Source of the DNA: Candidatus Omnitrophota bacterium
Lineage (GTDB): Bacteria; Omnitrophota; Gorgyraeia; Zapsychrales; JAHFFX01
Length of the DNA stretch: 64,000 nucleotides
Assembly (NCBI GenBank): GCA_023247705.1
Contig: JAHFFY010000007.1
Location: 6,934 to 70,933 of the forward strand
Reading direction: 5' to 3'
A program made the translations under genes and the position numbers. The notes beneath the pieces were generated by a model. That model worked only from the letters and a program-made list of their open reading frames with translations. It searched no databases and was not told where the DNA came from. Of the stretch, positions 17,201-63,135 are shown in pieces. The first letter of the stretch is position 1. Every line of letters begins with the position of its first letter.

Positions 17201-18925
17201 AGATGCCGATGGCAACCAGGTCGGCTGAGTGATTCCGGCGAACCTTGGGTCAACCGTGGGCACTGGTGGTTTTCTTACTCTCGACCAATTGCGCACATTA
17301 AATCTAGCCAACAATCTTCGGACGCCGATCGATAACTTTCCGGGCAATTCAGATAGCTTACTTGAAAAAAGCATCGCCTTGTCACCATCAACGGACGTCA
17401 ATTGATCTTTCCCCTCGGGATTCTCAGTCAACTTCTGTACGTCCGATCCGCTGATCGACTCAACCGGGACCGGCCTGTCCCAGGTTGTTCCATCCCAGGG
17501 AAGGACATTGCCATCGTCATCATATTCCATAACCGGCTGGACGGTCTCAAGCGACGCTTCGCTCAAAGATTCCCAGGCCGTCTTGATCTCGGGGGAAGAA
17601 TGGTTCAATTCCTGCGCAAGACGATCGAAATCAACCGCGAACGCCTCGCCTAAATTATGCTGTTCGATCCAATGTTTTAGTTGATCCTCTAATAATTCTT
17701 GAGGAGACTCGCTGATCTGAACTTGCGGGTTCGGAGATTGAAAATCCGTTAAAAGATATTCCATGTTCTCCTGGGTCCAGGGGACAAAACCCTCCGGGAG
17801 TGCGGTTCTCCTCGTCAACAGCGTTTGGATGACCGGGCCGTCGAACCCTCCCGAAAAATATTTCCGCGGAATCGTCTCTTTCATCTGGGTATCAAAATCT
17901 TCTTTGATGTAGTTGTAAACTCCCATCTTGAAGGCGTCGATATACTGCTGGTAAATCTTCTCTTTGACTTGCGGATCGTCGGCATTGACGCCGTTGATCT
18001 TCTTTTGATTGGAATAGACTTTATTCAAAAAATTATTCTGTAACGCCTGCTTGTACCAAACAGCCAGGATCATCGAATTGTAAATCTGGCGCAACTGTGC
18101 GAAATTTTTGTTTTCGTTCACCTCGCGCTCGATCTCGGGAATTAAAATATTTTTGGCGATCTGCGATGATAAATTACTGATTTGCTCGACATCCCCCTCG
18201 TTCTGCTGTTGAGTTCCCAATTGTTCGTTGCTCAAATTTTTCTTACGCGAGAGATAATCTTCCTCCAGCATCACGCTTAAATGACTTTCGATGACGAAGG
18301 CTTTCCCCTTATTTTCATAAACAACGGCTTTATCAGGCACAATCCAAACCTTGTTAAACGTATTCAAGGGAATATTTGTCGTCCCATACAACTCATAGGC
18401 TTTTTGATACACCTGATCCCAGAATCTTTTTCCGAGGCCGGTCTCCGGATAAGTCAATGAAGACATCAATTGTTTCAGGATATAATCCTGGGCCAAAAGA
18501 TCTCGCCCCATCTCCGTTTGACCGAAAGCGTCCGGAACGATCCGGTCTTTTTCATACGGAGATAGATTCACCCAAAGATCATCTTCGGGGATCGCCAAGG
18601 TGGCGAGAAAATATTTTATCAATTTTTCGTATTCCGCTTTTAACTCTTTTTTGGGAGAAGTTGTCTGCCCGCGGTCAACGATGAAATCAAATCTCAGAGG
18701 ATTTTCGGGATGAAGAGCCAGACCTCTTAGAATCGGGGGATTAAAAGCGGTCGTTGGAGCGACCATCGTCCCGGGTTTGGGTAGATCAAGATTGGGCTGA
18801 GCGTAAACAACAGCAGAATAATTGAGGATGGGAAAAAGACTTAATCCGACGAAACACAAAAACAAATAAAGCGTGATCCATCGAACCCAGGGACTTCTTC
18901 TATGCTGGACAAAAGAGATAAACAT
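5264..18925 (-). CDS. giant multidomain protein (4553 aa): N-terminal membrane anchor, GHKL-type ATPase signatures, four tandem ~530-aa super-repeats, C-terminal HExxH module
   Basis: uninterrupted 13,662-nt ORF with TAA stop; N-terminal hydrophobic segment WITLYLFLCFVGLSLFPIL; motif ELTQNSKDA...IADDGTGL...GFFGTGGLT at aa ~3817-3888; EAVSNSFDA and IIDNGTGMN at aa ~693-886; repeated modules FSxDGxYLxY...[ST]GTYT and [FW]DGxYFxLxNPxTG; HELAH at aa 4349-4353. Confidence 0.85.
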   Translation of the reverse strand: MFISFVQHRRSPWVRWITLYLFLCFVGLSLFPILNYSAVVYAQPNLDLPKPGTMVAPTTAFNPPILRGLALHPENPLRFDFIVDRGQTTSPKKELKAEYEKLIKYFLATLAIPEDDLWVNLSPYEKDRIVPDAFGQTEMGRDLLAQDYILKQLMSSLTYPETGLGKRFWDQVYQKAYELYGTTNIPLNTFNKVWIVPDKAVVYENKGKAFVIESHLSVMLEEDYLSRKKNLSNEQLGTQQQNEGDVEQISNLSSQIAKNILIPEIEREVNENKNFAQLRQIYNSMILAVWYKQALQNNFLNKVYSNQKKINGVNADDPQVKEKIYQQYIDAFKMGVYNYIKEDFDTQMKETIPRKYFSGGFDGPVIQTLLTRRTALPEGFVPWTQENMEYLLTDFQSPNPQVQISESPQELLEDQLKHWIEQHNLGEAFAVDFDRLAQELNHSSPEIKTAWESLSEASLETVQPVMEYDDDGNVLPWDGTTWDRPVPVESISGSDVQKLTENPEGKDQLTSVDGDKAMLFSSKLSELPGKLSIGVRRLLARFNVRNWSRVRKPPVPTVDPRFAGITQPTWLPSASDSERIRKGFNAFEYIDPSQNFRGVDLEHFVHAQARLAEGRLAPQILSNLLKNLNLNQNLTTEEAYREIYRALVRGNYQREIIDMINTLPDGRSTYTDPRLDVTIVGQHPNPRAQGINEAVSNSFDAILERLGLSDFKIGQFGMGVKQIIDWLESTGGDRIDIVTRQANSLKGDWYHLTILKDTNGQAYIQIVQLESPQEFEQVLGFPPVSNQGTVVQIKVKTPILRTKAEGEAQFQNSQESMVEDIHRRFAYVWFANITTQIEDEAPVHVNGVEDKRLIVGNPLPVSVERGDIHIAFSAHAVTIIDNGTGMNEQTVSRMFVPKEGDKLAEVLSKEDKIEELNNKVKMVHVPSLPHRVSFARNEEVILAVEIPPSIIDSSTVEGGLMVEFGRLMEVSEKRKDVRIQVDFSKDGALQTFQSAIDHVFTKIIANVSLTDIQKIAYVNTLIVGLEQLGTGNPNYEWVIASSKTKAKEVLSPVIERVEANNGVILPHERKFQKLAVPEGKKVIYLHQDLFDWSGVSSLRRLGGEIIQGVTVGAQKRLPLIVVPFTQESLRGVETFHPDWHTWTEEDRLPIIKTDRFTAIPQRWGKRLQELAAKRIYEGLNDNEKREFAKLTELLNIITGEETTTGYETAAVPKQMEIEEIEEIKRSAGQPDSDAVNEFNSAIVRTPTLAQSKRAMGSVAVPQNANQRHILSQGSIFEIATGKKVPFAGNILALRALRNGYYEIIEDIANINYYKLIRLQEGSKPEEVYYANQFKARLRMSPDEKFVYISRNGDVDEIFNLENGSRFILGANFFEVPAVITQAYKMQFQAPVVPPEIKMSNLQFTADGKYLVYVVKNNKTNEETFVAIDLEKKKPIIQHPILPGEEMELTLSNFGDIVALQVKGDDEIDFFSLAAGKFIPDQARLAFRSDSSGTYTAFRNIASTFVIYFHHNGNMVNASQLNVNLIQSVSTVWSEGDAYYEVRVNKAGTEQILFLDQDGQDVTGVVDPDKLKDKFRETFDGNQLTLFSPGLPGMLPSWNSFDFSNFSPEQNNLIFKQPGLEYFMNLVGPSHPEAIDALSGIKYPFESGNEVVHFFRRESLIFIDGNNNLVRRLNTGDRIEQGKVVAKGKSDPTRSLNGLVVVLDSNSNYVFYNFEKDIPIETILASVSSTEFTNVFWDGQYFVFVNPASKEVVYVSPDDPEHPIRPGQSQAAQSQPTATVFAPTNASLKHVVVNGVLKPVGSTAEILSGVTEFEHLGGNSYLLTRSIKNTAEAKAESPLTPDEDSQNILQEVVHLEGTNIVVLLSTSNAQGKIMSSPNKKYAFIEERTAGLTDSIVNVETGARFLLKNNFMDITGFLPEDVLPNFTADIQNTKNRDLRFSHDGRYLMYREISASNELSFVIVDLESPDPRKIVRKLPQGITDSVNIEYDMNPFANVAFVYFHQNQTMSLVDLTDGAIFTGDFLNGSVIESKLFNNNTTAYQYLHTDSTGTYTAMIKHNGEMEVYVHHGFEIIDSTKVGGKISIVDTSYAGGQQYFTIWTETGNPVRFDQDGQLYQYQPINTDYYYERVDTQGILKGVRVVNNLGQTSPVSVENIFEVNLADLDLLQVAKNIYHHPRYDLVVDTRDLSQPVAIDPMTKNSYKFKGDITYFDQASQKFASYQEGRFSRQEYSGTTSFPQLYIDMRGILDSSKRYLLDTSFGLSLSLSDVSNYSSSNIPTTLSQLEKGSYKPVSFDGKYFVLLNPATGDVIYLDPQDSQNPVRVPADGIAPAPGLVFTPPSTVTAVPGDAKQKYILINHQLIEAGTGKVVFKNAESAELLSNGFYKITTQDEIYISYPERSWNPLFIDKNDGDIAISPDKRFAYIVRKDANVAALIDLQTMVKYELNSFAKVADLNVSPNAITPLSDDWAYRSHGLRFSQSGKYLMYRQLTQGIDYNLVIVDFQKGDVVKKIPYDANSDLFSAAESINPFADVAFIQLKPGNMALLDLSTGEMYDGYKYLRTDSTGTYTVMVRNNDEIEIFFHKSKEVKKRADYGVRIAEISTIYKGDEVYFRLTSDSGDLYELDQDGNLTPWQKSLTGIHLEYYTAFGITLGGINGQVGADPNQQIFPPLFLDFVNASPLQHLNQRGIYFDRTLGLIIDHRYPNNSNAIDPVNGYAFTVSVSDEIAGYNANPGLIVFRTPKGEVVQQGWFNGHPTVATIIQGAIDAVPATYRVIHDTSVGTYNFQSLAQLNDIKMIPGVSPDIYTQILFDGTYFLLINPQTGDLYYVNPSAPENPIFVKAGSGATQIFPTMQLTLDDVKPNDAPYRWTIEWDDQGIPALKDNQGNLTARHPDIVNYVRLNSDTFLAYDQNGQVIEIIRMADPVLARYDLKSLNQTLLTYNDHLAVLTDGVHQFVVDLLTLKRINAIDSDANRYPNLKAGEPNSQEIHLSPSGRFTVHRTETGQLVYYDHDDPHPTPKIILTDLINKEYTVLDNADVVVIKTNAGYSLLNLFTKDYVGWGDTKHVEVDSSGTILVGKVETPSSGNLVPSLYVVNLKDNQQANIFVNLNEVRISSDQKYIYVMVASGLIHSFDRKTGKALPSLPVAPEDLPRYWENYDTQQKTIWDRTSQGVPATWPAGMRDSLKYDDETPFNKGRDSIRLSGTDVMVFNRFDSGNGRSLMSGAGIYDLKTGNDFMGSTLLESIPEHSAVSSLKGGNVRYFNSKEGISKVKVGNQAFDFDPHLTFVNQSKTYLLGQQIFTIQGTGGGPIKGFWMLIDSAEKQYPLLGGIPAGFAVVDVNGDYFVLHNADTGETKYFDPKTIVNAKVTQGIPAQQDAGTRVKWNQEVVTRREAWVKRVQSIYQPILELINSGYGEYNARGEINRRLAPLFDELYRAQLREVRARFERAVREGKDFDATASLPFDRFAGRMARLKIFLDGFLNNTTIRDFIRKEEYSYQRDFYVNLFSGLFELAVHWDLSFETVMEKLVKDSELGEEVLYRYLFELLGYGFKVGSQEQLSLIPKFGELIDRLNQITNKQMKLVDLKKILDFLFFVADKGPQNIETMNKQLDKILRARPQTMERFLAKWLTSFASVELADLTDFINHPDSTRALGDARSFASFLTSDGDQVREESSEEKAMFLPEGEDVDLERGGTSLARIAEEEERRPKDDQYGNIVKKSFSKIGVEDVDGLWQDLVARGYIDETQSKVIKKLEKESDVVLQYRFMPYQSAVYRVLQEARKIVMDVDYFIEHRHQLPGAPQNAQMDLVRDSKVQRESGAYTAELTQNSKDARASKLEISYYLRTNQETGKREFVEEIADDGTGLLQEFAMWVARKSTKEFGAQQGTTGFFGTGGLTTFEGVDRLELINNNGIRRYMFVVDVIKDENGNFIDFKLVRMRKITNPNIREGVTVRRVKAEENTIPELDQMLSQRTWKIFTGLAQTDDFKIYFVNYTDNVRRLRQLNVDSKVVSEIDFTIPRFGDAQMTTFGQFRLIATKDMPLQVVDRVGLRVSEIPEPYLKLVPPGLRRHIKELGLNLQIPLPMIRGRSDFEHGDTYYLPYVQKYVAIELFKLIAQKTLSETDPQFTFLNFPTEWRSNDHYWKSIDFNDAPVVRLAQRINDGQYNEITPQELLNLISSQPGLDYEKKVLKLILMLKAPVQGKTTSLLLERIAIQEELDRNRQGRDLARRNIEMLEDIGLRVNRADIPDVRTIAGYQEILRQASGIETGHEQMKNPAAYLVNPDEYTNLEKELIASALQPGKLVGIERVLLTDNRVFFEGAFSTYENRKTMFLRRGLASHIGRSDPRLSILDEATNTIDHELAHLLEQYMVDFFVSSDLWTTGLPVHLSNFTHDRVGTFAESMKYMAAIWLTNSSDWEEEAYQGADRALLKSSDDLNERFLTNLEMQLPLANVAGRMPVHAISQAAKSIGLDHRPDQRGSIMDMAGQNKRSPPGGIDLNPAHFNLQVQGQGTDGAAVPNEQNLEIIPINGLTPVILQITPVTDLPFLLGLSQPAREQLSYSAR

Positions 18926-27489: not shown

Positions 27490-30400
27490 TTACTGCGCCC
27501 AGCTTCCTCCCAACGCTTTAATTAACTGGACGGTCGATACGAGACTCCGATTAAGGATCTGAATGGATTGAAGTTCCGCCTGCAGCCGTGATCGTTCGGC
27601 GTCGGCCACCTCGAGAAAATTGACCAATCCCTGACTGTAACGGGATTTGGCCATACCGGCCGATTGTTGCGCGGCATCCACAACCACTTTTTGAATATCC
27701 CATTGCTCCCGTCCCAGCCGAATACGCACCAGCGCATCTTCCACTTCACCGAACGCGACGAGAACACGCTTGCGGTAAGTCGCGACTGCTTTATCGTACT
27801 GGCTCTTGGCCGCCTGCAGGTTCGCTTTATTTTTGCCGCCGTTGAACACAGGCAAAAACACATCCGGTCCCACTGACCACATACGACTCTCCCAATTAAA
27901 CAACGAACTCAACTCCATACTTTCAAACCCCGTTTTTCCCGTCAATGAAATCTTTGGGAAAAAAGCAGCTTGCGCGACACCGATCTGGGCGTTGGCCGCG
28001 GCCATCAGACGTTCCGCTTCGGCGATATCCGGACGGCGTTCCAATAAATTTGAGGTTAATCCGGGAGGAATGATCGGCGGGATGAGATCAAGAGGTTTTG
28101 TTTCGATTTTAAATTCGGCGGCGGACTTTCCGCATAACACGGCCAAGGTGTTTTCAATTTCTGCCCGTTGCCGGGCCACATCGATCTTGGCGGCCTGCAC
28201 TCCGGCTAATTCCGTCTGGGCCCGCGAGACATCCAGTTCGCTGACCAAACCGGCTTTAAAACGGTTTTCGACAACCGATAACGCATCGGTCCGTAAAAGC
28301 ATGCTCTTCTCTAATATCTGCACCTCGGATTCCAATTCCCTTAACATAAAATAATTTCTGGCCACATCCGCGGTCAGGGTTAACGAAACAGTCTGAAAAG
28401 CGGCCTCGCTCGCTTGCGCTTCGGCCAAAGCGGCATCGGAAGACGACTTCACCCGTCCCCAAAGATCCACTTCATAGCTAAGGTCCAACGGAACTTCATA
28501 AGAATTACTTGGGTTCTTCGGGGAAAAATCTCCAAACGTGTTTTGTGATGTCCGTTCCCGGGTGTATTGTGCCGATAAGTTAGCTTCCGGATAAAAGGCC
28601 GATTGATTCAGTTTAGCGACCGCACGGGCCTGATTCAAACTGGCCAGAGCGATCTTTAAATCCTGATTGAAATGCATCGCTTCTTTTTCCAAATCATTTA
28701 AAAGCGGATCATTGAAAACCATCCACCATTCCCCTTGGGCAACATGATCACGCGGGCTGGCCTCTTTCCACGCCGGGTCGGTGGTTTTCCAATCGGCGGG
28801 GATACTGGCCTCGGGAATATGATAACGCGGGGCGCGCATACAACCGCTCAAGAAAACAATCAGGATCATCGCCGCGCCAGCGGTCTTGATCACAGATTGA
28901 TTGAAGTTGGAAAGATTCGTGGGCGGCGCCATTTTATTTTTCCTGGGACTCAAAAGAACATAAACCACCGGAATAACAAAAAGCGTCAAAAAAGTACTGG
29001 TCAACATACCTCCGACGGCAGCGACTCCTAACGGCCGGCGACTTTCTCCACCGGCACCGAAACCGATCGCGATCGGAAGAATCCCAGCGATCGTCGCGGT
29101 GGCGGTCATGAGAATCGGTCGCAATCTGATCAAACCGGCCGCCAGCATCGCCTCGCGCGCCGTTTTTCCCTTGCGGATTTGCTGATTGGCAAAATCGACG
29201 AGTAGGATTCCATTCTTCGTAACAAGTCCGATCAAAAGCAAAAACCCGATCTGGCTGAAAAGGTTAATCCCCATCGCCGGAATTCTCGGAATTTTTCCCG
29301 ACAGCCAATGTCCCGGCGGGATCGTCATTCCCCAATGATCGATCAGACTCACACACCAAAGACCACCGAAGGCGCCAAAGGCCGCGAGAGGAACGGTCAG
29401 CATCACGGTCAAAGGATGGACGAGACTCTCAAACTGAGAGGCCAAAACCATGTAAATCACCAGAACCGCCAGAATCAATACAATGAAAATATCCCTGCCG
29501 GATTCGATCAAGTCCCGGGCCTCCCCGGTCCATTCATAACGGAAATCCGCCGGTAAATCCGTTTTAAGCAGGTTCTGAACTTTCTGGACGGCCACCCCCA
29601 ACGGCACGCCGACCGGAGTCCCTTCGATAATCGCGGAACGAAAACGATTAAAATGCTGAATAGCACTCGGTCCCGCTCCCGTCTCATAAGATACAACATT
29701 ATTTAATTGGATCAACTCTCCATGAACGTTTCGCACATAAAGACGTTCCAGATCCGACGGAGTCAAACGGGATTCCCGCTTAAGCTGGACAATGACATCA
29801 TATTCCTTTCCAGAAAGATTCAGTTTACTCAGATCCAATCCTCCGAAAAGAATCTGCAGCGTGTGAGAAATATCTTCGACAGAAACGCCTAAGGCCGCCG
29901 CGCGATTACGGTCGATCAATATTCTTAACTCCGGTTTATTCAGCTCGAAGGTCGAACGGACATTCGCCAGATATCCTGATGTGCGCAGTTTGCCGCTCAA
30001 TTCATCCGCATAGCGGCTGATCGCATTTAAATCGGTTCCCTGGAGAACAAGCTGAAAAGGCTGGGTGAATCCGCCACCGATCGATTTGGGAATGATCGGG
30101 ATGACGATCGCGCCTTCGATATTTTGAAAAAATTTTGAACCGAACCCAAACGGACCACCGACGATGTCGCGCACATGCCGTTTGCGATCTTCTTTCAAAC
30201 GGATAAATGAAAGCCCCTCGGCCGCCCGGCCCGGTCCGCTGCGGGCTAAAGCGACCGCGGAGAAATATCCTTCCACCTCCGGTGTTTGAGCAATAATCTC
30301 CTCTGCTTTCTTCACCATGCGGTCGGTATATTCGCTGGTGGATCCTTCCGGAGCGACGACAATACAAAACAGACGCCCTTTATCTTCTTCAGGCATGAAT

Positions 30401-32052
30401 TCACGATTTAACCGGGAATAAAAAAAAATCGTCAACCCCAAAACACAAAGACTCAAAAACATGATGACAAACGGATGGTTAAGCGACCACTGCAATCTTC
30501 GTTCATACCAGCGATGCAATGCGTTCAATCCGCGATCAAAGTAATAGACCAAACCTCTCTTCTGTTCATCGTGCGCAACACCGCGCAGAATCCTGGAGGC
30601 CACCATCGGAGCCAGCGACAACGCGACAAACGCCGAGATCAACACCGAGAAAGAGATCGCCACGGCGAATTCGATAAACAACCGTCCGGTCACACTGGTC
30701 TGAAACGCCATCGGAAAAAAAACCGCGACCAGCGCAACCGTAGTCGCAATGACGGCAAAACCGATTTCTTTCATCCCCTGAATCGCCGCCGGCATGGCGG
30801 ACATTCCCTCTTCGATATGCCTGAAAATATTTTCCAACACGATAATGGCGTCATCGACCACCAAACCAATCGCCAGGACAAACGCCAGCATCGTGACAAT
30901 ATTAATAGAGTAACCGAATAAATATAGAACACCGAATGTCGCGATAATTGAGATGGGAATCGTAACTGCTGGGATAAATGTTGACCGGATATTGTGCAAA
31001 AAAATAAAAATTGTCACAACGACGAGAAGAAAAGCAATCGCCAGCGTCCCCCAAACCTCTTTAATGGATTTCTCCACGTAAACGGATTCATCGTAAGGAA
31101 CCGAAGTATTAATGCCGACCGGCAATGTGGGTTTCAGACGTTCCAGTTCTTTCTTGATTCCATGGGCAACATCGATTGTGTTCGCCTTGGATTGTTTGAT
31201 GACCCCGATCCCGACGCAGGGTTTGGAATTATAGCGTGCAATCGAGCGTTCATCCTCAACTCCGACAGCCGCATAACCGACATCGCGCAACCGCACGAAG
31301 GCGGACACCTCTTGTTTAATGACGAGATCATTGTATTCCTCGGGTGTTTTCAATTCACCCAAAGTCTCAATCGAAAGTTCCCGCTGCCAGCTTTCGACCC
31401 GGCCGCTGGGTAATTCCACGTTTTGATTTTTCAAAGCGCTTTCCACATCCATAACCGTGATACCGCGCGCCGCCATTTTTTCCGAATCAAGCCACAACCG
31501 GATGGCAAAACGCTTGGCGCCGCCGAAGATAATGGAACTTACCCCCGGCACGGTTTGCAGTCGGTCCTTCAAGATATTCTCACCGATCGTGGTCAATTCC
31601 AGTGTTGAGAAACGATCGCTGTACAAAGCGATCCATAAGACCGCTTGTGCATCGGCATCCTGTTTCGCAACGATCGGTTCATCGATATTTTCCGGCAACC
31701 TTCCCCGGACACGGGCGACACGGTCGCGGACATCCTGGGCCGCGAGCTCGATACCGCGGGAAAGATCAAACTCCAATGTGATCGTGCTGACCTGTTCCCG
31801 ACTCTCGCTCGTCATGGTTTTGATGCCTTCAATGGAATTCAAGGCCTCCTCGAGGGGTTCAGTCACCTGTGTTTCAATAACTTTAGCGCTGGCACCGGTA
31901 TAAATCGTGGAGACGTTGACAATCGGAGGATCGACGTCGGGTAATTCCCGGACAGGAAGTCGGGACAAACCGACCAGGCCAAACAAAATCAGCCCCAGAC
32001 TCATCATGGTGGCAAGGACAGGACGATTAATGCTAATTTCAGATAAGCGCAT
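27490..32052 (-). CDS. RND efflux permease (AcrB-like, aa 1-1040) read in frame into an outer-membrane factor (NodT/OprM-like lipoprotein, aa 1041-1520)
   Basis: 1520-aa continuous ORF; N-terminal 12-TM RND permease; internal MAPPTNLSNF...AAMILIVFLSGC lipobox signal peptide followed by a 480-aa OMF-like sequence; junction ...SPRKNK-M... sits in an A5 run. Confidence 0.75.
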   Translation of the reverse strand: MRLSEISINRPVLATMMSLGLILFGLVGLSRLPVRELPDVDPPIVNVSTIYTGASAKVIETQVTEPLEEALNSIEGIKTMTSESREQVSTITLEFDLSRGIELAAQDVRDRVARVRGRLPENIDEPIVAKQDADAQAVLWIALYSDRFSTLELTTIGENILKDRLQTVPGVSSIIFGGAKRFAIRLWLDSEKMAARGITVMDVESALKNQNVELPSGRVESWQRELSIETLGELKTPEEYNDLVIKQEVSAFVRLRDVGYAAVGVEDERSIARYNSKPCVGIGVIKQSKANTIDVAHGIKKELERLKPTLPVGINTSVPYDESVYVEKSIKEVWGTLAIAFLLVVVTIFIFLHNIRSTFIPAVTIPISIIATFGVLYLFGYSINIVTMLAFVLAIGLVVDDAIIVLENIFRHIEEGMSAMPAAIQGMKEIGFAVIATTVALVAVFFPMAFQTSVTGRLFIEFAVAISFSVLISAFVALSLAPMVASRILRGVAHDEQKRGLVYYFDRGLNALHRWYERRLQWSLNHPFVIMFLSLCVLGLTIFFYSRLNREFMPEEDKGRLFCIVVAPEGSTSEYTDRMVKKAEEIIAQTPEVEGYFSAVALARSGPGRAAEGLSFIRLKEDRKRHVRDIVGGPFGFGSKFFQNIEGAIVIPIIPKSIGGGFTQPFQLVLQGTDLNAISRYADELSGKLRTSGYLANVRSTFELNKPELRILIDRNRAAALGVSVEDISHTLQILFGGLDLSKLNLSGKEYDVIVQLKRESRLTPSDLERLYVRNVHGELIQLNNVVSYETGAGPSAIQHFNRFRSAIIEGTPVGVPLGVAVQKVQNLLKTDLPADFRYEWTGEARDLIESGRDIFIVLILAVLVIYMVLASQFESLVHPLTVMLTVPLAAFGAFGGLWCVSLIDHWGMTIPPGHWLSGKIPRIPAMGINLFSQIGFLLLIGLVTKNGILLVDFANQQIRKGKTAREAMLAAGLIRLRPILMTATATIAGILPIAIGFGAGGESRRPLGVAAVGGMLTSTFLTLFVIPVVYVLLSPRKNKMAPPTNLSNFNQSVIKTAGAAMILIVFLSGCMRAPRYHIPEASIPADWKTTDPAWKEASPRDHVAQGEWWMVFNDPLLNDLEKEAMHFNQDLKIALASLNQARAVAKLNQSAFYPEANLSAQYTRERTSQNTFGDFSPKNPSNSYEVPLDLSYEVDLWGRVKSSSDAALAEAQASEAAFQTVSLTLTADVARNYFMLRELESEVQILEKSMLLRTDALSVVENRFKAGLVSELDVSRAQTELAGVQAAKIDVARQRAEIENTLAVLCGKSAAEFKIETKPLDLIPPIIPPGLTSNLLERRPDIAEAERLMAAANAQIGVAQAAFFPKISLTGKTGFESMELSSLFNWESRMWSVGPDVFLPVFNGGKNKANLQAAKSQYDKAVATYRKRVLVAFGEVEDALVRIRLGREQWDIQKVVVDAAQQSAGMAKSRYSQGLVNFLEVADAERSRLQAELQSIQILNRSLVSTVQLIKALGGSWAQ

Positions 32053-53985: not shown

Positions 53986-54348
53986 TTACTGGGGAAGAAT
54001 CTCGTTTCTCTCGGGAAATTCATAAACGGTCGCGGCTGATTTTTCTTTTGCACCCTCTGTGTCTGTGGATACCTTCACCGTTTTAGGTTGCTGTGTCACA
54101 GGCGCCAAAGGATCATTGGCCGGATCAATGACCGGGATGCCGGGAGTACTTTCGGGTGTAGATTGAGCGACCGCCCCTGATGGCGACGCGCTATTGTCAT
54201 TCGTCGATTGATCTTTAGCTGCATCAATCTGTTGATTAAGCCAATGATTCATCCCATAGACTAAAGCAAACATGACGATGACGACACCCAACAAAAAATA
54301 ATTCTTTGTATTTCCACGATTATCCATTATCTGTTTCCCTCCTGCCAA
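53986..54348 (-). CDS. membrane-anchored hypothetical protein (pilus-cluster associated)
   Basis: 120 aa with one TM segment and a Pro/Thr-rich periplasmic tail. Confidence 0.35.
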   Translation of the reverse strand: MAGGKQIMDNRGNTKNYFLLGVVIVMFALVYGMNHWLNQQIDAAKDQSTNDNSASPSGAVAQSTPESTPGIPVIDPANDPLAPVTQQPKTVKVSTDTEGAKEKSAATVYEFPERNEILPQ

Positions 54349-56063
54349 ACGAGTTTATCGGTAATATCATTGGTAAAAGCGATAAATGTATTTAAGGATG
54401 GGAAATAGGGAGGAACTTTTCCCTGTTCCATACGATGATCATAAACAAAATTGCGGCCGTACCCGGAAAGCCATTGTCCGGTCGACCCGTTAAAAAGACC
54501 AAAAGCACCGTAGTTGTTGGTAATTGATCCACCCAAGAGCGTTGCCGTACCGCGCGCGCCAACCCCTTGATCGTCATAGTTATCAACGGTAAGAATACCG
54601 TTCTGAGCCATAACCGTCCCATGAATTTCGACATTATTGGGCGCAGGTGTCCCGATACGGACATTTCCATTCCAAGAAACAAGTCCTAAAACGTTGGTAT
54701 AAGCTTGTCCATTGGCGTCATATACCGAGGGAGGAATATAACCTGCTTGACCGGAAGTTCCGGAACCAGGGGTATAATCTGTGTATTTAACATTATTCGT
54801 AATCACTATATCACTATGACTAGCTACCGTTAATTCTGTATCCTCTTGAACTGTTCCGGAAAAACTGTTGATTTTTCCATCCACATAGATGATGTCTCCG
54901 GATCCATCGGTGCCATTGGGCTGCCCCGTATAGGTTGTGGTGGCGCCACTCTGATCCAGGACGGTCGTTTGATTCGCGTTTCGATTAACCGTAATTGTTT
55001 TGGTGCTACTTCCTAAAGAGATCGCATATACAGCTTGATTTTGATTATTTACAGAAATAGTCACGGAAGCACCGCTGTTATTTTGATCCCGGACATAAAC
55101 CCCGCCGTTCAAAGTCGATCCTTGTGTGGGAAGATAAATTCCATCATTCCTATAATTACTATTTCCTTTCACTTGAGAAATCATATCTGTCTCTTGTGTC
55201 GCTGAATTCAATGTAATCTGTGAAACATTACGACTAAAACTATCATGAAAAATAGGGACATCTTTCACCCCATTTGCATTTGCATCAAGGAGGATCGCAC
55301 TGCCATTATTGTAAAAACGGGTGGTTTGCTGATATTGAGAGATCAATTCTTCAAAAGTGCCGCTGGGATTCAAAGCAAAATTAAATCGGTCATTGCTATG
55401 GACCGGACCCGAAAAATTGGTTTTATCGGTAAACCAGACATTGGTTCCACTTGGAGTCTGCTGGTTATTGGTGAATAAAGCAAATTTGGCAAAATTATCC
55501 TTCTGAAGACGAACAGTAAAATCTCCCCAAACAACAACTTGACTGCTTAGACTTCCATTTGTCCCGGTAGATTCTATTCGATAAGAATATGGGAAATCCC
55601 AGGCATTGGACCCGACTGCGCTAGGGTCCTCTTTTTCCATAAAGATGATGTTATAAGAATAATTTATATTTCCTAAAGAGCCGCTGGCGGTATAGCTGCC
55701 TTCTTCCCCATTTTGCGCGAGAACAGGAACATTATTATTGCGCACCGCATAAACTAACCACCCGATCCCATCCCCAGAAGCTACTTTACCTTGAGCGTAA
55801 CCAATAACGCCATTAGGGTCAGCAATAGAAATTGTTGTTTGTAAATAATTATTAATCAAGACATCCAATTGTTCAATAGCGGCCTGGGATCCACCGTGGG
55901 CGGCATAAAATGTTTTAGACTGTTCGCGTTCATTGTTGGCAATACGATTCTCATGAATGGAATTTAAAACAAAAATACCCTGGAGCGCCATAAGGATGAC
56001 AACAAAAAACATGGTGAAAACCAAGGCCACTCCTCTTTCATTATTCAATCTCATATCCATCAC
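54327..56063 (-). CDS. type IV pilus assembly protein, PilX-like N-terminus, large minor-pilin-associated protein
   Basis: 578 aa; N-terminus MRLNNERGVALVFTMFFVVILMALQG resembles the PilX_N motif; ATGA overlap with the upstream pilin gene. Confidence 0.5.
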   Translation of the reverse strand: MMDMRLNNERGVALVFTMFFVVILMALQGIFVLNSIHENRIANNEREQSKTFYAAHGGSQAAIEQLDVLINNYLQTTISIADPNGVIGYAQGKVASGDGIGWLVYAVRNNNVPVLAQNGEEGSYTASGSLGNINYSYNIIFMEKEDPSAVGSNAWDFPYSYRIESTGTNGSLSSQVVVWGDFTVRLQKDNFAKFALFTNNQQTPSGTNVWFTDKTNFSGPVHSNDRFNFALNPSGTFEELISQYQQTTRFYNNGSAILLDANANGVKDVPIFHDSFSRNVSQITLNSATQETDMISQVKGNSNYRNDGIYLPTQGSTLNGGVYVRDQNNSGASVTISVNNQNQAVYAISLGSSTKTITVNRNANQTTVLDQSGATTTYTGQPNGTDGSGDIIYVDGKINSFSGTVQEDTELTVASHSDIVITNNVKYTDYTPGSGTSGQAGYIPPSVYDANGQAYTNVLGLVSWNGNVRIGTPAPNNVEIHGTVMAQNGILTVDNYDDQGVGARGTATLLGGSITNNYGAFGLFNGSTGQWLSGYGRNFVYDHRMEQGKVPPYFPSLNTFIAFTNDITDKLVWQEGNR

Positions 56064-56845
56064 CCTCGATTTCTTAACATCACATCCATACTATTGGAAA
56101 TCGATATTGTCCGTCTTGGCACCGCGATCTCGCTTAACTTCACCGCCACCGTCACTTCCGTCTGCCCCCCATTAATACTAGCCTGGAAGTCTGTGAGGTG
56201 TTGCGCAAATATAGACGAGCTAACGACCGCGTTATTTGTGTCTAACACTCGGCGCAATAGCTGCCCGCTATTATCCATTACATACTCGATCGTCCTATTC
56301 GTATAGGTATTCGGATCGCAACTTCCGCACGCCCCGAGATAATCCCCGTGCGCCAAATGCGCCTTGACACTGGGGGCCCCCAAATTCATGGTGTGGGGAT
56401 TATTGGGATTTGCCGGAGGATAATGACATAAATCTACTTTTCCATTACTGTCCGTAGGATAATTCGTACTGCACCCCGCCTGCCCCCATGTCAACGGTGC
56501 TCCCCACCGGCTCACATTTCCGTTACTATCCATCGGACTGATGCCGCAAAGACACAACGGAACCGAAAATCGTAATACGTCCGTCCCATTTACTCCCGTT
56601 CCATCTAATATACTCACCTTCATATTCCCGGCACTATCTCTTCCCGATTCCTGTAATTCAATGGAAATCCGCTGCAACACCCGTAAAGAATTCTCCAACA
56701 ACTCAGAACGCGCATAGGTTAATGAAAATGTATTCTGTCCAGCGACAAACACCATGGATCCAGCCAGGAGTACAATCGACATCAAACCCACCATGACCAT
56801 CATCTCGACCAACCCGACTCCTCGTTTAAAATTTAAAACATTCAT
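56060..56845 (-). CDS. prepilin-type N-terminal cleavage/methylation-domain minor pilin (PilW-like)
   Basis: probable start MNVLNFKRGVGLVEMMVMVGLMSIVLLAG (56845); the ORF track extends to 56935. Confidence 0.55.
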   Translation of the reverse strand: MNVLNFKRGVGLVEMMVMVGLMSIVLLAGSMVFVAGQNTFSLTYARSELLENSLRVLQRISIELQESGRDSAGNMKVSILDGTGVNGTDVLRFSVPLCLCGISPMDSNGNVSRWGAPLTWGQAGCSTNYPTDSNGKVDLCHYPPANPNNPHTMNLGAPSVKAHLAHGDYLGACGSCDPNTYTNRTIEYVMDNSGQLLRRVLDTNNAVVSSSIFAQHLTDFQASINGGQTEVTVAVKLSEIAVPRRTISISNSMDVMLRNRG

Positions 56846-56858
56846 TCTCTTAGCTTCC

Positions 56859-57320
56859 TCACATGTTATAAATCTGCGTCGCCATTCCAACGATCGAATC
56901 GATCTGCCCATTCCCGTTCGCATCCTCTCCCCCATTCAACGTCCCATTCAAATTTTCATCCTCTCCAATCACCCGCGCGTTTCGTTCCCGCCAACAAAAT
57001 GAAATCGTCACTGTCACATGATTCGGATTGCTATTGTCCACATACGTCTTGCCCATCCCGGTCAATCCCGCAATCGTAAAGGTCGTATTGTTATAGGTAT
57101 TATAAATCTGATTAAACGCAGTATTCTCTATCGTGGTTATTCGATTCTTCACTCCCCACACGGCTAACGAAGAATTTTTGGCGATATCGCTCAATTCCAC
57201 ACATTTGATAAACGTCTGCATGCCCAATGTGAACAACGGAAGCAAAATAAGAACAGAAATAAGCACCTCCACGATGGTTAATCCTTTTTGCCCCTTCAAT
57301 TTTTGATGATAATGTCTCAT
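56859..57320 (-). CDS. prepilin-type minor pilin (PilV/GspH-like)
   Basis: QKGLTIVEVLISVLILLPLFTL class III signal peptide / methylation motif. Confidence 0.55.
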   Translation of the reverse strand: MRHYHQKLKGQKGLTIVEVLISVLILLPLFTLGMQTFIKCVELSDIAKNSSLAVWGVKNRITTIENTAFNQIYNTYNNTTFTIAGLTGMGKTYVDNSNPNHVTVTISFCWRERNARVIGEDENLNGTLNGGEDANGNGQIDSIVGMATQIYNM

Positions 57321-57864: not shown

Positions 57865-59448
57865 ATGAAATTATTCTTTCCCAAACATATTTTTTTGATC
57901 CTGAAGATCGTTTTTTCTTTCTTTCTCCTCTTCTTTCTTATCAAACTCATCCTCTACCACTATCATCTGATTATTGATCCCTTCCAAGCCGAATACCGCG
58001 AAGGGGCTTCAATCACAATGACCAGCGCCTTGATCAAAGGGCTGAATCCTTACGCCTTAGAAAATCAACCGCAGTACACCAATGATTATGGCATCCTTTA
58101 CTCCCTCTTTGTTTATCCCTTCGCAAAATGCTTTGGTGTCACACTCCTCGTCCACCGCTGGGTCAACGCATTTTTGATTGGATTATCATGCCTGTTCCTG
58201 ATCTTTGTCATGCAACGATTAGAAATTCCATTGTTATTAAGTTTAAGCGGCGCACTTCTTTTTTACGCCTCTCTATTATTCCCCCGGACCACCACCGCCT
58301 GCGCGACGCCATCGCCGCTCGGTGTACTTCTATTTCTGTTAAGCGTCTTCTTACCTTGGCTTGATCGATATTCCTGGAGAAGTATTTTCTGGAGTGTCTT
58401 TCTAGGACTCCTCGCTTATTTCACAAAACCTTATTTCATCCTTTGTATTCCATTAATCGGAAGTTATATATTCTTTTTTGTTTCCAAAAAGAAAGGTCTA
58501 TGGATCGCCGGGTTGTCGCTTTTGTTCTTTGTTTTAAGCCTGTTTGCCGCAGGGAAAATCTTTGAGTGTTATTTCAACAATTGTTATTTTATCCACACCA
58601 ACGCAACCCCGTTGTCTCCAGAACACTTAAACCGGCAAATCGATTGGTACCTCAAATTACATAAACCTTTGTTGATGCTATTGGTGGCTGGACTCGCAGC
58701 GATCTTTTTTAGAAATCTAAAAAACGGTGCACAAACCATCCGACCTCTCGGAAAAGCATTAAAGGAATTCTTGTCAAAAATACATATCAATCAATTCGAT
58801 CGGCCCCTGATTGATCTTCCTTGTCCGTTAACGTTCTATTGCGCCGTGATTGTATGGATCGTCTTGATATTATCGCTGGGAAAACACATCGGCGCTTTGC
58901 TATGGTACTTTTTCCATCTCTTGTCGCCGTTTCTCATCGTTTACGCGCTGTGGATCCTCAGCCGTTTTTCTTTCTGGCCGATCGGCGTTCTGCCGTTTTT
59001 GGTGTGGAACTTGTCCGTCATTACGGTCGATCACGATTACCAACGGTTAACCGCCGATACGGCCGTGTGGAGTGAACTCAAAAAACAGATTTCCAACTAT
59101 AACAACATCCTCAATTCACCGATCGTCGCGGCTTTCTTGGTTGAACAGAATAAACCCATCTTCGATAACGGATTGTCAGAATATTTCAAAATCGGCGGTT
59201 ATCGTTATTCGTTCAACAAGCGATTTTTCAAACCGGATGGCCGGATCATTCACCGTTACTATCAATATCTGAATGAAATCAAGCAGATGGTCAGAACGAA
59301 ACAATTTGATTTAATTTTACTGACGGAAGGTTATGCCCCTTTTGCACCGGTGGAACTGCCGAATTATTATCAATACTTAGGAACAGTCAAGCTGTCTCTC
59401 CCGCATTGTTTTCTGGATTTCAACGTTACAATTTGGCAATCCAAATAA
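57865..59448 (+). CDS. large polytopic membrane protein, possible GT-C-type glycosyltransferase
   Basis: 527 aa with more than 10 TM segments; divergent from the pilin cluster across a 540-bp AT-rich intergenic region. Confidence 0.4.
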   Translation: MKLFFPKHIFLILKIVFSFFLLFFLIKLILYHYHLIIDPFQAEYREGASITMTSALIKGLNPYALENQPQYTNDYGILYSLFVYPFAKCFGVTLLVHRWVNAFLIGLSCLFLIFVMQRLEIPLLLSLSGALLFYASLLFPRTTTACATPSPLGVLLFLLSVFLPWLDRYSWRSIFWSVFLGLLAYFTKPYFILCIPLIGSYIFFFVSKKKGLWIAGLSLLFFVLSLFAAGKIFECYFNNCYFIHTNATPLSPEHLNRQIDWYLKLHKPLLMLLVAGLAAIFFRNLKNGAQTIRPLGKALKEFLSKIHINQFDRPLIDLPCPLTFYCAVIVWIVLILSLGKHIGALLWYFFHLLSPFLIVYALWILSRFSFWPIGVLPFLVWNLSVITVDHDYQRLTADTAVWSELKKQISNYNNILNSPIVAAFLVEQNKPIFDNGLSEYFKIGGYRYSFNKRFFKPDGRIIHRYYQYLNEIKQMVRTKQFDLILLTEGYAPFAPVELPNYYQYLGTVKLSLPHCFLDFNVTIWQSK

Positions 59449-59484
59449 AAATCCGGTGGCATCTCTGCCAGGACAACAGCCACA

Positions 59485-59918
59485 TCAATAACTGTCTTGC
59501 GTAATCTCCACTTTGCCCCTGAAGACCCAATAAATCACAATCGTGTAAGCCAGGACCCCAAGACAGCAATATTAAGCATATAGTTTAAAAATTTTGGAGA
59601 CGAAACGGAATTATAAATCGTGAGACTGTACTGCGGATCAGGATTGGAAGGAACGATGTTCGGAAAAAGACCAATGCCGCACAGAAACAACAGTGCAAGC
59701 ATGGCCACGCACGATGACAATAAGGCCAGCAAATCACGGCCATGATAAATTTCACGCGGAATATTCGCGATCGACAGCATATTAATCAAAGGGATGATGA
59801 ATAAAACCGGATACAGCACAACTAAAAGGATGCCCAGCCCGATGCTTAAGGGAGGATAGATATAATGAAAAGCGATCGTTATGGCAAATTGTATACGGGA
59901 TAAAAACAAAACATCCAT
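59485..59918 (-). pseudogene. cydAB: cytochrome bd oxidase remnant: cydA N-terminus fused to cydB C-terminus (internal deletion), with a 3' frameshift
   Basis: [32 protein letters not shown] matches the CydA N-terminus; ...[31 protein letters not shown] matches the CydB C-terminus (FPFV.PSS...SLT.WDATSS..LNVMT); after a G4 run the alternate frame gives [21 protein letters not shown] (CydB LYTAWCYWKMFGRITKEDIE). Confidence 0.6.
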
Positions 59919-60470
59919 CAGACGCTCCTGATTTTGTAAAAATCTTTTCTACCAAATAACAATTGAGAAATATATTACTATAAATCGATTCTTTTAAAAT
60001 CAAAAATATTATTTTGGACGGATTACTGTAAACTGTCAATCTGCAAGAAATAATCATAATTGAGTTTATTCAAGATATTCATGATGTTGAGATCAGTGGG
60101 GGCCAAGACAGAAAAATATTTGCTTTGTCCGAGAAAGACCAGTTTCTCCTCCAGAGCCTGACTTAACACGGGAACAATCGCAAGGATCAAAAGCGCAAGA
60201 ATTAGACAAAAATATTTACGCATTTATATTTTAAAATAATTCATATTGCTCTGACGCTCTTATGAATTAAAAAATAGGTTATTATACTAACAACTGAATT
60301 GAACTCCAATAAAAAGGAAAAAATTTCTGGCAAAAGAAGGAGATTAAAAAAGGATGCAATAGAATTAAATTTTCTGAAGATTTTCTTAAAATCAGGAGAG
60401 GAACGTCAGCATTCTCAGCGGAATAGGAATTTAATGCACACACCTATAACATCTCAAGACAAATTCATTC

Positions 60471-60926
60471 TTAAAGAAATTCAATTTTAATCTGAAGAAC
60501 ACCTTCTCGCGCGTCACTTAGTTGTTCAAAAGCCGCGTGGGTCAGATCAACGATCCTGCCTTCGCGGACATGCCGTTCATGCGGGCCGCGGTCATTTACG
60601 CGCAGAATCACCGACCGGCCGTTTTGTAAATTCGTGACTTTAATCCTGCGATCAAACGCAACCCCCCACATCGCACAGGTCATCGCCCGGTCGTTAAAAA
60701 CCTCGTTATTAGCGGTTCGTCTTTTAATCCCGGGGGATTGTTTCGAATACCAAGAAGCTAAGCCGAACATCGAATACCTTCCGTTGATTTCTCTAATAAG
60801 GGGCGGGTGATAATAGGCGTATAAGTTATTGGCCTCCGCCTGTCTGGTTTTATCTCCGCTGCGTAAAACAATCGCAGCCAGAAGGAGAGCCACCACAATC
60901 ATTTTTGAGCCAAATTGATTTGTCAT
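60471..60926 (-). CDS. rlpA: septal ring lytic transglycosylase RlpA-family protein (DPBB domain)
   Basis: ASWYS...TANNEVFNDRAMTCAM...VTNLQNGRSVILRVNDRGP...RIVDLTHAAF DPBB signature; signal peptide. Confidence 0.85.
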   Translation of the reverse strand: MTNQFGSKMIVVALLLAAIVLRSGDKTRQAEANNLYAYYHPPLIREINGRYSMFGLASWYSKQSPGIKRRTANNEVFNDRAMTCAMWGVAFDRRIKVTNLQNGRSVILRVNDRGPHERHVREGRIVDLTHAAFEQLSDAREGVLQIKIEFL

Positions 60927-61091
60927 TGGATTATTTTTTGACTGATCATAGTTTGAAAAAACATCATAGCTTAAAGTTAAGCCATTTGTATTATATGAAA
61001 ATATCCAATTTAGTCAACCTTCTTGGTAGGGCGCTGGGATGGCAAGGCTAAACAGAGATCGGATTGGGGGTGATTTTAAAAAATTTCATGA

Positions 61092-61490
61092 TTACTGCGG
61101 ATTGATTTTACAGATAACTCGGTTGATCGCTTTGAGCAGGTCTTCAGGTTCGAATGGTTTTGCGACCGCGTGGAAATAGGCATTATCGACCTTGACACTT
61201 AAAGTTTCCGAATCGGCTTCCTCTTTCGTCAGAATCGCGGTCAGAAAGAGGACCGGAATATTTTTCATTTTTAGCTCGGATCTAAGAATTTTGATGGCCT
61301 GCGTTCCATCCATGTCGGGCAGGAGGATGTCCATGATAATCAGATCAGGCACGACATGTTTGACTTGGGAAATGGCTTCTTCGCCGTTTTGGGCTTTAAG
61401 AACTTCGTATCCTTCCGATGTCAATTCCATTTCAAGCATCGTAAGAATAGCTTCTTCGTCATCGACTATTAATACCTTTGCCGTTCCCAT
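61092..61490 (-). CDS. orphan single-domain response regulator (receiver)
   Basis: VLIVDDEEAILTMLE...DLIIMDILLPDMDG receiver motifs; 132 aa. Confidence 0.8.
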   Translation of the reverse strand: MGTAKVLIVDDEEAILTMLEMELTSEGYEVLKAQNGEEAISQVKHVVPDLIIMDILLPDMDGTQAIKILRSELKMKNIPVLFLTAILTKEEADSETLSVKVDNAYFHAVAKPFEPEDLLKAINRVICKINPQ

Positions 61491-61758
61491 TGTATGCTCG
61501 CTTTCTTATCAAAATACATCTTTGATAACAGCGTAACTGGATTGTTGCTTAGAGTTACAAAATCCAGCCGTGAAAACAAGTATTGCCTGGGATCTCCTAT
61601 TAACGCATTCAGGCTATATCTAATAATACTAAATTAGGCCCGTTCTTTAAACTTACGTTTTACTTTATATTTTAAAGCAAAAGTATCTGGTTCAAGTATA
61701 TACTATTTTCTTAAATTACGGTGGGAATAAATTGACAATTCCGGGAGAAAAAAACAAC

Positions 61759-61855
61759 TTATTGACCTTTTCCTTCCCAATGTTAAATCTCCAACTTTCG
61801 TCAGCGATGGAGGTTGGAGATTTAACATTCTTATTAGTAGAGAGAAGGTCAATAA
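61759..61855. repeat. ~100-bp nested palindromic intergenic repeat (copy D, second subfamily; outer stem GACCTT/AAGGTC)
   Basis: TTATTGACCTT..TTAAATCTCCAAC..GTTGGAGATTTAA..AAGGTCAATAA; abuts the stop of the TPR gene. Confidence 0.7.
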
Positions 61856-63135
61856 TCTCTAAGAAAACCAAACGCTCCCAGCCAGCTGGAGGCGATAAAT
61901 AAAATGAGAGATAATCCCGAAGCCGTTTCCAAGAGGGCCGACATTTCTTTTCCGTAAAAAAAGGACTCAGCCCCCCTGATCATTCCAACGCTTAAAATAA
62001 ATATTCCTATGGCACCGTAAACGATACGGCCGGCTTTATGATCATTGGTAAATGTACTCGAGAATGGGATCGTAGCCATGATCAGGGCAATCCCGATCGT
62101 GGTCATCACCAGGGCTTTGAACGCAATGCCGATCAATATAAAACTGATTCCGGCAAAAAATCCTCCGCCCGTGAAGATCCCATCCAGCTTTTCTGTTTTC
62201 TTCAAACTATACCGAGCAAACGGATCGCAGAGGATCAGCAAATTTCCGATCCCCCGGGAAAGCCATGTCCAGAAAAAGAAACCGTATAAAGCGATCAACC
62301 CTAAATACCCGACCACCGCCCAAGGCCCATTTAAAATGGCTAAAAATCCCTTGAGCGCCGAACGATACGCGATGTAAATTCCCATCAAAATCCAAATCCG
62401 TGCGCCTTTGGTCTGACGAGACATGAATAGTCCATACTCCAAATACAACCGATATAACGGTGATTTCGCTTTAAAGACTTCCAGCATCCCCGATCTGGCC
62501 GGCTCGAAATTGGGATCCAAGCGCAACGCTTCTTTAAAATGGATCTGGGCCTTTCGATAATCTCTCCGGTTTAAATAGACCCATCCGGCGTTGGAATGGG
62601 ACAGACTATTTTCGGGATCTTTGGCCAGAAGGTCAGAGGCCAAATGAACACTTTCATCGAGTTTGTTTTGCATCCGCAAAGCGTTGGCCAAAACGTTTCC
62701 GGCAAAGCGATTATCCGCGTCGAAGGAAAGAGCATCCCGCGCGGATTTTTCAGCATCGTTCCATTTTTCCAGCATAGAAAAAATATAGGCCTTGGCCGCG
62801 TGGGCATCGGGATATTGGGGATTAAGCCTCAACGCCTCATCGACCGTATCCAAAGCTAGTTTATGTTTCTTCAAACCGGAAAGGATCAAAGACTTCAATT
62901 GATAATAGGCCGGTTCCTGATTTTCATGTTTGAGAGCTTCATCGATCGTTTGCAAGGATTGTTTGCGTTGGTCGTCCAAATGATATTGCGCGACCGCAAG
63001 GAAATACAATAAATAATCGTTGGTCGGGGCCTGGGATAATTGGTCTTTAAAAGCCTGGACCGCTTCTTTATAACGGCCCTGGTCGATCAGGATCGTCCCT
63101 CTGCGAAAAGCCGTTTCCTGAAATGGTTCACTCAC
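61849..63135 (-). CDS. TPR-repeat protein with C-terminal multi-TM region
   Basis: 428 aa; tandem TPR-like repeats in the N-terminal half and about 4 TM helices in the C-terminal third; start overlaps the AAA gene stop by 4 nt. Confidence 0.65.
   Translation of the reverse strand: MSEPFQETAFRRGTILIDQGRYKEAVQAFKDQLSQAPTNDYLLYFLAVAQYHLDDQRKQSLQTIDEALKHENQEPAYYQLKSLILSGLKKHKLALDTVDEALRLNPQYPDAHAAKAYIFSMLEKWNDAEKSARDALSFDADNRFAGNVLANALRMQNKLDESVHLASDLLAKDPENSLSHSNAGWVYLNRRDYRKAQIHFKEALRLDPNFEPARSGMLEVFKAKSPLYRLYLEYGLFMSRQTKGARIWILMGIYIAYRSALKGFLAILNGPWAVVGYLGLIALYGFFFWTWLSRGIGNLLILCDPFARYSLKKTEKLDGIFTGGGFFAGISFILIGIAFKALVMTTIGIALIMATIPFSSTFTNDHKAGRIVYGAIGIFILSVGMIRGAESFFYGKEMSALLETASGLSLILFIASSWLGAFGFLRDY

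Follow-up and report, generated by a model that had tools for sequence, protein, structure and literature searches.

A probable recent pseudogene of the cydAB operon in an Omnitrophota genome

Layout of the locus and homology of its parts

The window analysed here is a 64-kb stretch of Omnitrophota DNA, drawn from an NCBI contig of 72,471 bp. On its minus strand, downstream of a 66-aa ORF and facing a convergent 527-aa gene, lies a short segment carrying the two outer ends of a cydAB operon, which encodes the cytochrome bd quinol oxidase. The features of this locus are the following.

60011..60039 (-): promoter-like site, TTGACA-17-CAAAAT, ~90 nt upstream of the ATG (10/12, a consensus match only)
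59925..59929 (-): AGGAG resembling a Shine-Dalgarno sequence, 6 nt before the ATG, read from the sequence
59485..59918 (-): entire cydA'-'cydB remnant, running 434 nt from the ATG of cydA to the former cydB stop, a span of 2384 nt in intact relatives
59535..59918 (-): present ORF of 127 aa, whose last six residues (SWLTRL) are frameshifted and precede a premature stop at 59535-59537
59814..59918 (-): cydA 5' fragment, codons 1-35 (transmembrane helix 1), placed by tblastn, Pfam PF01654 positions 1-30 and PDB 6rko_A residues 2-40
59811..59819 (-): large-deletion junction, CydA ...G-I-L-L-V-V joined to CydB L-Y-P-V-L-F..., placed by codon comparison with the intact operons L007 and L009
59556..59816 (-): cydB codons 231-317, which cover helices 7-8 with the first part of helix 9 and share the frame of the cydA start codon, placed by tblastn and Pfam PF02322 positions 201-302
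59553..59561 (-): second lesion, TTGGGGTCC on the coding strand, with a net 10 nt missing relative to all homologues
59485..59556 (-): cydB codons 321-343 with the former cydB stop, TGA at 59485-59487, today in a frame other than that of the ORF
59447..59470 (-): weak terminator-like hairpin followed by a T run, 15 nt past the former end of cydB, in the gap that separates the remnant from the convergent 527-aa gene (consensus match only)

The 66-aa ORF directly upstream of the remnant (60023-60223, minus strand) has a signal-peptide-like N-terminus and no Pfam match. It is called as a gene in two further assemblies, ENA and Logan (see below), and its 3' end is overlapped by the promoter-like site of the remnant.

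The best CydB matches among the GTDB species representatives come from the Omnitrophota MAGs HK-STAS-OMNI-4 (L007, JACKFL010000006.1; 72% identity) and CA_2019_TPBF_141 (L009, JBFWOS010000003.1; 70%). Both harbor complete operons composed of a cydA encoding 449 aa, a 2-nt spacer, and a cydB encoding 343 aa, spanning 2384 nt from start to stop. With the intact CydA and CydB of L007 as queries against the 64-kb window, tblastn places CydA residues 1-35 at 59918..59814 (83% identity, E 3e-13), CydB residues 231-317 at 59816..59556 (75%, E 1.5e-39), and CydB residues 321-343, in a different frame, at 59556..59488 (70%). The CydA and CydB segments abut or overlap at 59814-59816. No second cydA- or cydB-like sequence was found by tblastn in the 64-kb window, every other match having E > 0.5. 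Over CydA residues 1-35, the remnant is 83% and 77% identical to L007 and L009, respectively, and 72-75% over the CydB C-terminus; the three also share the clade signature LNYM(L/M)NIAV. The two relatives differ from it in possessing full CydA and CydB, whereas the remnant keeps only 434 nt.

Profile searches return the same two parts. The frame-corrected product of 144 aa matches Cyt_bd_oxida_I (PF01654) through its residues 6-35, at positions 1-30 of 418 (E 1.2e-7, 31.1 bits, cut-off 26.2), and Cyt_bd_oxida_II (PF02322) through its residues 29-133, at positions 201-302 of 302 (E 5.9e-15, 55.9 bits, cut-off 35.6). In NCBIfam, these parts are matched by the cydB equivalog (positions 261-366 of 378) and by CydA (positions 2-39 of 522). 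A PDB sequence search aligns residues 1-39 with residues 2-40 of subunit I of E. coli bd-I (6RKO), and residues 34-137 with residues ~259-366 of subunit II of E. coli bd-I and bd-II. Such a resemblance to CydA and CydB is far beyond what chance would produce.

The original prediction had read the 127-aa ORF as what an internal deletion left of the cydA 5' end and the cydB 3' end; similarity is significant by Pfam, NCBIfam, and tblastn alike, and profile searches, tblastn, and codon-level alignment agree on this identity. The extents then proposed need adjustment. The CydA N-terminus, put at the first ~40 aa, spans 34-35 aa by tblastn and codon comparison, and the rest, put at the last ~90 aa of CydB, represents its last 113 residues, of which 87 are in frame, 3 are missing, and 23 are out of frame. 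The final CydB residues do form an out-of-frame tail as had been seen, in the -1/+2 frame, however, and not in the "+1" frame: the tail and its stop at 59485-59487 appear upon translation from 59916, offset by 2 from the ORF.

Two deletions and the predicted product

A codon-by-codon comparison with L007 and L009 sets the junction of the large deletion after cydA codon 34 and before cydB codon ~231. On the coding strand, it reads GTTGTG followed directly by CTGTATCC. Measured against these closest intact operons (2384 nt), the deletion amounts to ~1.94 kb. It is internal and in frame, as first proposed, although smaller than the ~2.3 kb then estimated, a size which would suit the E. coli type with its long Q-loop and not the Omnitrophota clade of the remnant. 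Everything from cydA codon 35 through codon 449, across the short spacer and on to cydB codon 230, was probably taken away in one event of illegitimate recombination, which left the two remaining ends in frame by chance. No convincing direct repeat was identified as microhomology at the breakpoints, the ancestral sequence of the locus not being at hand.

The second lesion costs CydB its residues 318-320 (I-P-F) and puts what follows out of frame. Where its relatives have GCN GTN ATC GGN ATN CCN TTN GTN CTN, the remnant has GCT GTC TTG GG/G TCC TGG, a net loss of 10 nt. Three extra residues, x-P-x, stand between ...IG and VL(A/S)YT in all 13 aligned CydB homologues, in three intact DNA sequences, and in the PDB chains, and the proline is more than 90% conserved. 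Each solved PDB chain aligned across the lesion has three residues at the 10-nt gap of the remnant (three alignments). A second event, probably later than the large deletion, removed three codons of the last CydB helix and, by shifting the frame, ended the ORF 17 codons early. Loss of 10 nt at once would look the same in the present sequence as loss of 9 nt accompanied by a 1-nt change.

Compared with the bd oxidases of known structure (E. coli bd-I, 6RKO, and bd-II, 7OSE; M. tuberculosis, 7NKZ; M. smegmatis, 7D5I), the remnant corresponds to CydA helix 1 and CydB helices 7-9. It lacks CydA helices 2-9, with the Q-loop and the other heme ligands, and CydB helices 1-6. A full-length CydA counts ~450-520 aa and nine helices, and the remnant holds 35 of 449 residues; a full-length CydB counts ~335-380 aa in one frame, and the remnant holds 110 of 343, with residues 318-320 missing and 321-343 out of frame. 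The heme-ligand and Q-loop positions of E. coli CydA are His19, His186, Met393, and Glu99. In the remnant only His18, the equivalent of His19, is retained; the Q-loop and all other heme ligands are taken to fall in the deleted segment, in line with established knowledge of bd oxidases and with the 6RKO alignment. Without the Q-loop and with no heme ligand other than the His19 equivalent, the peptide cannot be an oxidase.

The outer shell of the operon appears to have been kept, with its promoter-like site, Shine-Dalgarno sequence, start codon, original stop, and terminator-like hairpin. Transcription and translation of the locus may thus continue and yield a hydrophobic peptide of 127 aa, in which CydA helix 1 would lead directly into CydB helices 7-8, followed by helix 9 in broken form. 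Its hydropathy profile displays one long hydrophobic stretch (window centres ~24-45), in which CydA helix 1 and CydB helix 7 are merged, and a second segment (centres ~69-82) corresponding to helix 8; the truncated helix 9 stays under the threshold.

Age of the remnant and alternative readings

The age of the inactivation was approached within the clade formed by the remnant and the intact sequences L007, L009, L087, and L008, using identities over the last 113 CydB residues. The intact members are 73-84% identical to one another, and the remnant is 70-74% identical to them. The more decisive measure is the distance to 78 outgroup CydB C-termini: on average the remnant shares 62.5% of its residues with them, and the four intact members share 60.2-63.4%; for the out-of-frame tail alone, the mean identity to the outgroups is 67.4%, against 67.9-70.5%. 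Among 50 columns conserved in at least 90% of the sequences, the remnant departs at six, two of these departures being common to intact clade members and one being the deleted proline. Beyond the two lesions, it contains no further stop or indel. Since the surviving codons are no more diverged from the outgroups than those of intact genes, both lesions are probably recent on the scale of divergence between these species; this comparison of rates rests on only 110 surviving CydB codons, and "recent" is therefore a qualitative term.

These observations argue for a genuine and recently formed pseudogene, the stub of a cydAB operon, to which we assign a probability of about 0.87. Its homology is significant with partial coverage of both families, and its reading frame is disrupted relative to the intact homologues by the net 10-nt deletion and the premature stop, both being expected of a pseudogene.

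It is very unlikely that the chimeric ORF is instead a functional new small membrane protein, kept by selection. Such a gene would account for an in-frame fusion provided with a Shine-Dalgarno sequence and a promoter-like site and devoid of internal stops, and the lack of excess divergence would fit continued constraint as well as a very recent inactivation. That all 127 codons are open, follow a ribosome-binding site and contain no additional stops suits a very recent loss, although taken alone it does not speak against retention by selection. The 10-nt lesion, however, wrecks the final helix of the conserved set, while conservation of the out-of-frame tail still equals that of intact genes, which points to recent breakage and not to adaptation. 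Furthermore, CydA helix 1 and CydB helix 7 natively span the membrane in the same direction, as deduced from the published nine-helix topology, and a direct fusion cannot keep both topologies.

In-frame cydA'-'cydB fusions on other contigs (P0014, P0016, P0017, P0018, and P0047) could also speak for a new gene. The protein search returned these and P0019 as short proteins joining a CydA N-terminus to a CydB C-terminus. Their junctions differ, however, connecting CydA residue 32-94 to CydB residue ~165-283, and their CydB parts belong to different lineages, as expected of independent accidents and not of a family. The sample is also biased: the search detects in-frame fusions only, with a hit list of proteins below 250 aa, and hence provides no evidence of selection for fusions. 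The cluster of the 127-aa protein (P0001) has one member, the other fusions have other junctions, and the present junction gave 0 hits in the JGI metagenomes. A conserved family of cydA'-'cydB mini-fusions was rejected on the grounds of differing junctions and lineages and of a search limited to short in-frame proteins. The most far-reaching version of the new-gene reading, in which the retained cyd promoter and ribosome-binding site drive expression of a peptide made of CydA helix 1 and the CydB C-terminus that has gained a small-membrane-protein role of its own, is likewise very unlikely. Were it true, the in-frame fusions seen repeatedly in metagenomes would mark a recurrent way in which respiratory operons, as they decay, give rise to new small membrane proteins.

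The original prediction had left the choice between a recent loss of the oxidase and an assembly collapse. The latter would mean that the real genome contains a full cydAB and that the assembler skipped about 1.95 kb of it. Although the source is indeed a metagenome-assembled contig, this has little to recommend it. The exact 127-aa protein is called in three assemblies produced by different pipelines: the NCBI contig from which the window derives, a MEGAHIT contig of 21.7 kb (k141_2546553) in ENA assembly ERZ27280021, and a Logan contig of 3.3 kb from run SRR14366787. These are independent as assemblies and not necessarily as DNA samples, as the same or related samples may be involved. The ENA contig differs from the window by 6 SNPs in 14,466 nt, none of them within 59400-60000, and its junction and 10-nt lesion are identical. 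The Logan contig is 100% identical over 3276 nt (58436-61711) and runs unbranched through the junction and the 10-nt lesion, though it ends just before a cluster of SNPs.

De Bruijn assemblers join sequences only across k-mers present in the reads, and the ENA prefix k141_ suggests 141-mers. As the cydA 5' and cydB 3' ends, in addition, share no repeat able to cause a collapse, the junction should exist in the sampled DNA, and the three assemblies make a collapse or a chimeric join an unlikely cause of the remnant. A genuine recent loss, at least of this copy, is thus favoured among the two options, the junction and the second lesion being found in three assemblies, one of them with 6 SNPs elsewhere, and the surviving codons showing no excess divergence.

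Of the six SNPs that set the ENA contig apart from the window, five are packed into 65 nt (61795-61859), at the 3' end of a gene encoding a 428-aa TPR protein or just downstream of it, and the Logan contig stops at 61711, just short of this cluster. Together, they suggest strain variation in the population.

It has equally little in its favour that the large deletion is real and the frame break a sequencing or consensus error, the true product being an in-frame fusion of ~144 aa: the break does sit at a GGGG run (59555-59558), where homopolymer errors typically arise, but a one-base slip after this run, to which the frame break had been attributed, was rejected as its cause, since it leaves the loss of three residues present in all aligned homologues unexplained, the net loss being 10 nt, and the lesion sequence is identical in all three assemblies. 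As the break is not a one-base homopolymer slip, a plain sequencing error is unlikely; a true deletion of 9 nt to which a 1-nt error was added would still fit.

Relatives, other remnants and further features of the window

The flanks of the L007 and L009 operons, with AhpC-like or ABC-F genes upstream and MBOAT and DUF1574 genes downstream, are unrelated to those of the window and show no synteny with it, nor does their upstream non-coding DNA align with the window. The flanking 527-aa membrane protein has no relative among the GTDB species representatives. Its best homologues elsewhere, from Candidatus Omnitrophota MAGs, do not exceed 45% identity; in the three loci inspected (L004-L006), no cyd genes are found near them and the flanks are unrelated to the window. 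No close relative with more than 45% identity in this flanking gene was found in the searched collections. Exact-match scans of the JGI metagenomes gave 0 hits for the deletion junction and 0 hits for the species-specific cydA 5' end; by these matches the species is absent from the JGI collection, which thus offers neither a further independent sample nor an intact allele of it.

Internal deletions of cydAB are also found in metagenomic contigs, in L003, L088 (P0016), and L089 (P0014), as well as in P0017, P0018, and P0047, none of them orthologous to the present remnant. The fusion ORFs at L088 6001-6399 and L089 1235-1771 are flanked by unrelated genes, leaving no room for an intact operon. 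In L003 (JGI 3300044603, Ga0485107_001016; 1552-2136), cydA is intact (449 aa matched), and cydB lacks residues ~33-209, keeping only residues 7-32 and 210-343, by an independent internal deletion. As read from these contigs, such remnants show that internal deletion is probably a common way for cydAB to die.

The presence of cytochrome bd is patchy in Omnitrophota (PMC10066038). In the reduced genome of the Coxiella-like endosymbiont CRt, cydAB are pseudogenes (PMC4494066). The two cases are alike in that a bd oxidase has been lost by pseudogenisation in a lineage of which some members possess the genes and others do not. They differ in that one large internal deletion fused both genes in frame here, and in that the organism is a free-living or host-dependent member of the Omnitrophota and not a tick endosymbiont. 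As viewed in 64 kb of genome, the remnant indicates that its lineage recently lost this copy of the oxidase. It may be regarded as a dated snapshot of the gain and loss behind the patchy distribution, a loss caught in the act, and it illustrates that loss is possible by a single large internal deletion which leaves the ends and signals of the operon in place. It is otherwise an ordinary, recent gene remnant which opens no long-standing question. It matters chiefly as a trap for annotation and metabolic inference: pipelines assign both PF01654 and PF02322 to the ORF, and a domain- or KEGG-based survey could score the genome as possessing an oxygen-reducing or -detoxifying oxidase although the gene is dead.

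Other features of the window were recorded, all on the minus strand. A pilin-like gene cluster (54327-57320) adjoins the 527-aa gene; among its products are a 578-aa DUF4900 protein and one of 153 aa whose N-terminus is of the prepilin type (GLTIVEVLISV). A protein of 1520 aa (27490-32052) consists of an AcrB-type RND efflux pump (ACR_tran, E 2e-288) fused to an outer-membrane factor domain (OEP, residues 1335-1515); the same ACR_tran and OEP combination is found in a 1488-aa gene of the Omnitrophota locus L004. Finally, a giant ORF of 4553 aa (5264-18925) has no Pfam match at E <= 1e-5; "big ORFs" are given as a trait of Omnitrophota (PMC10066038).
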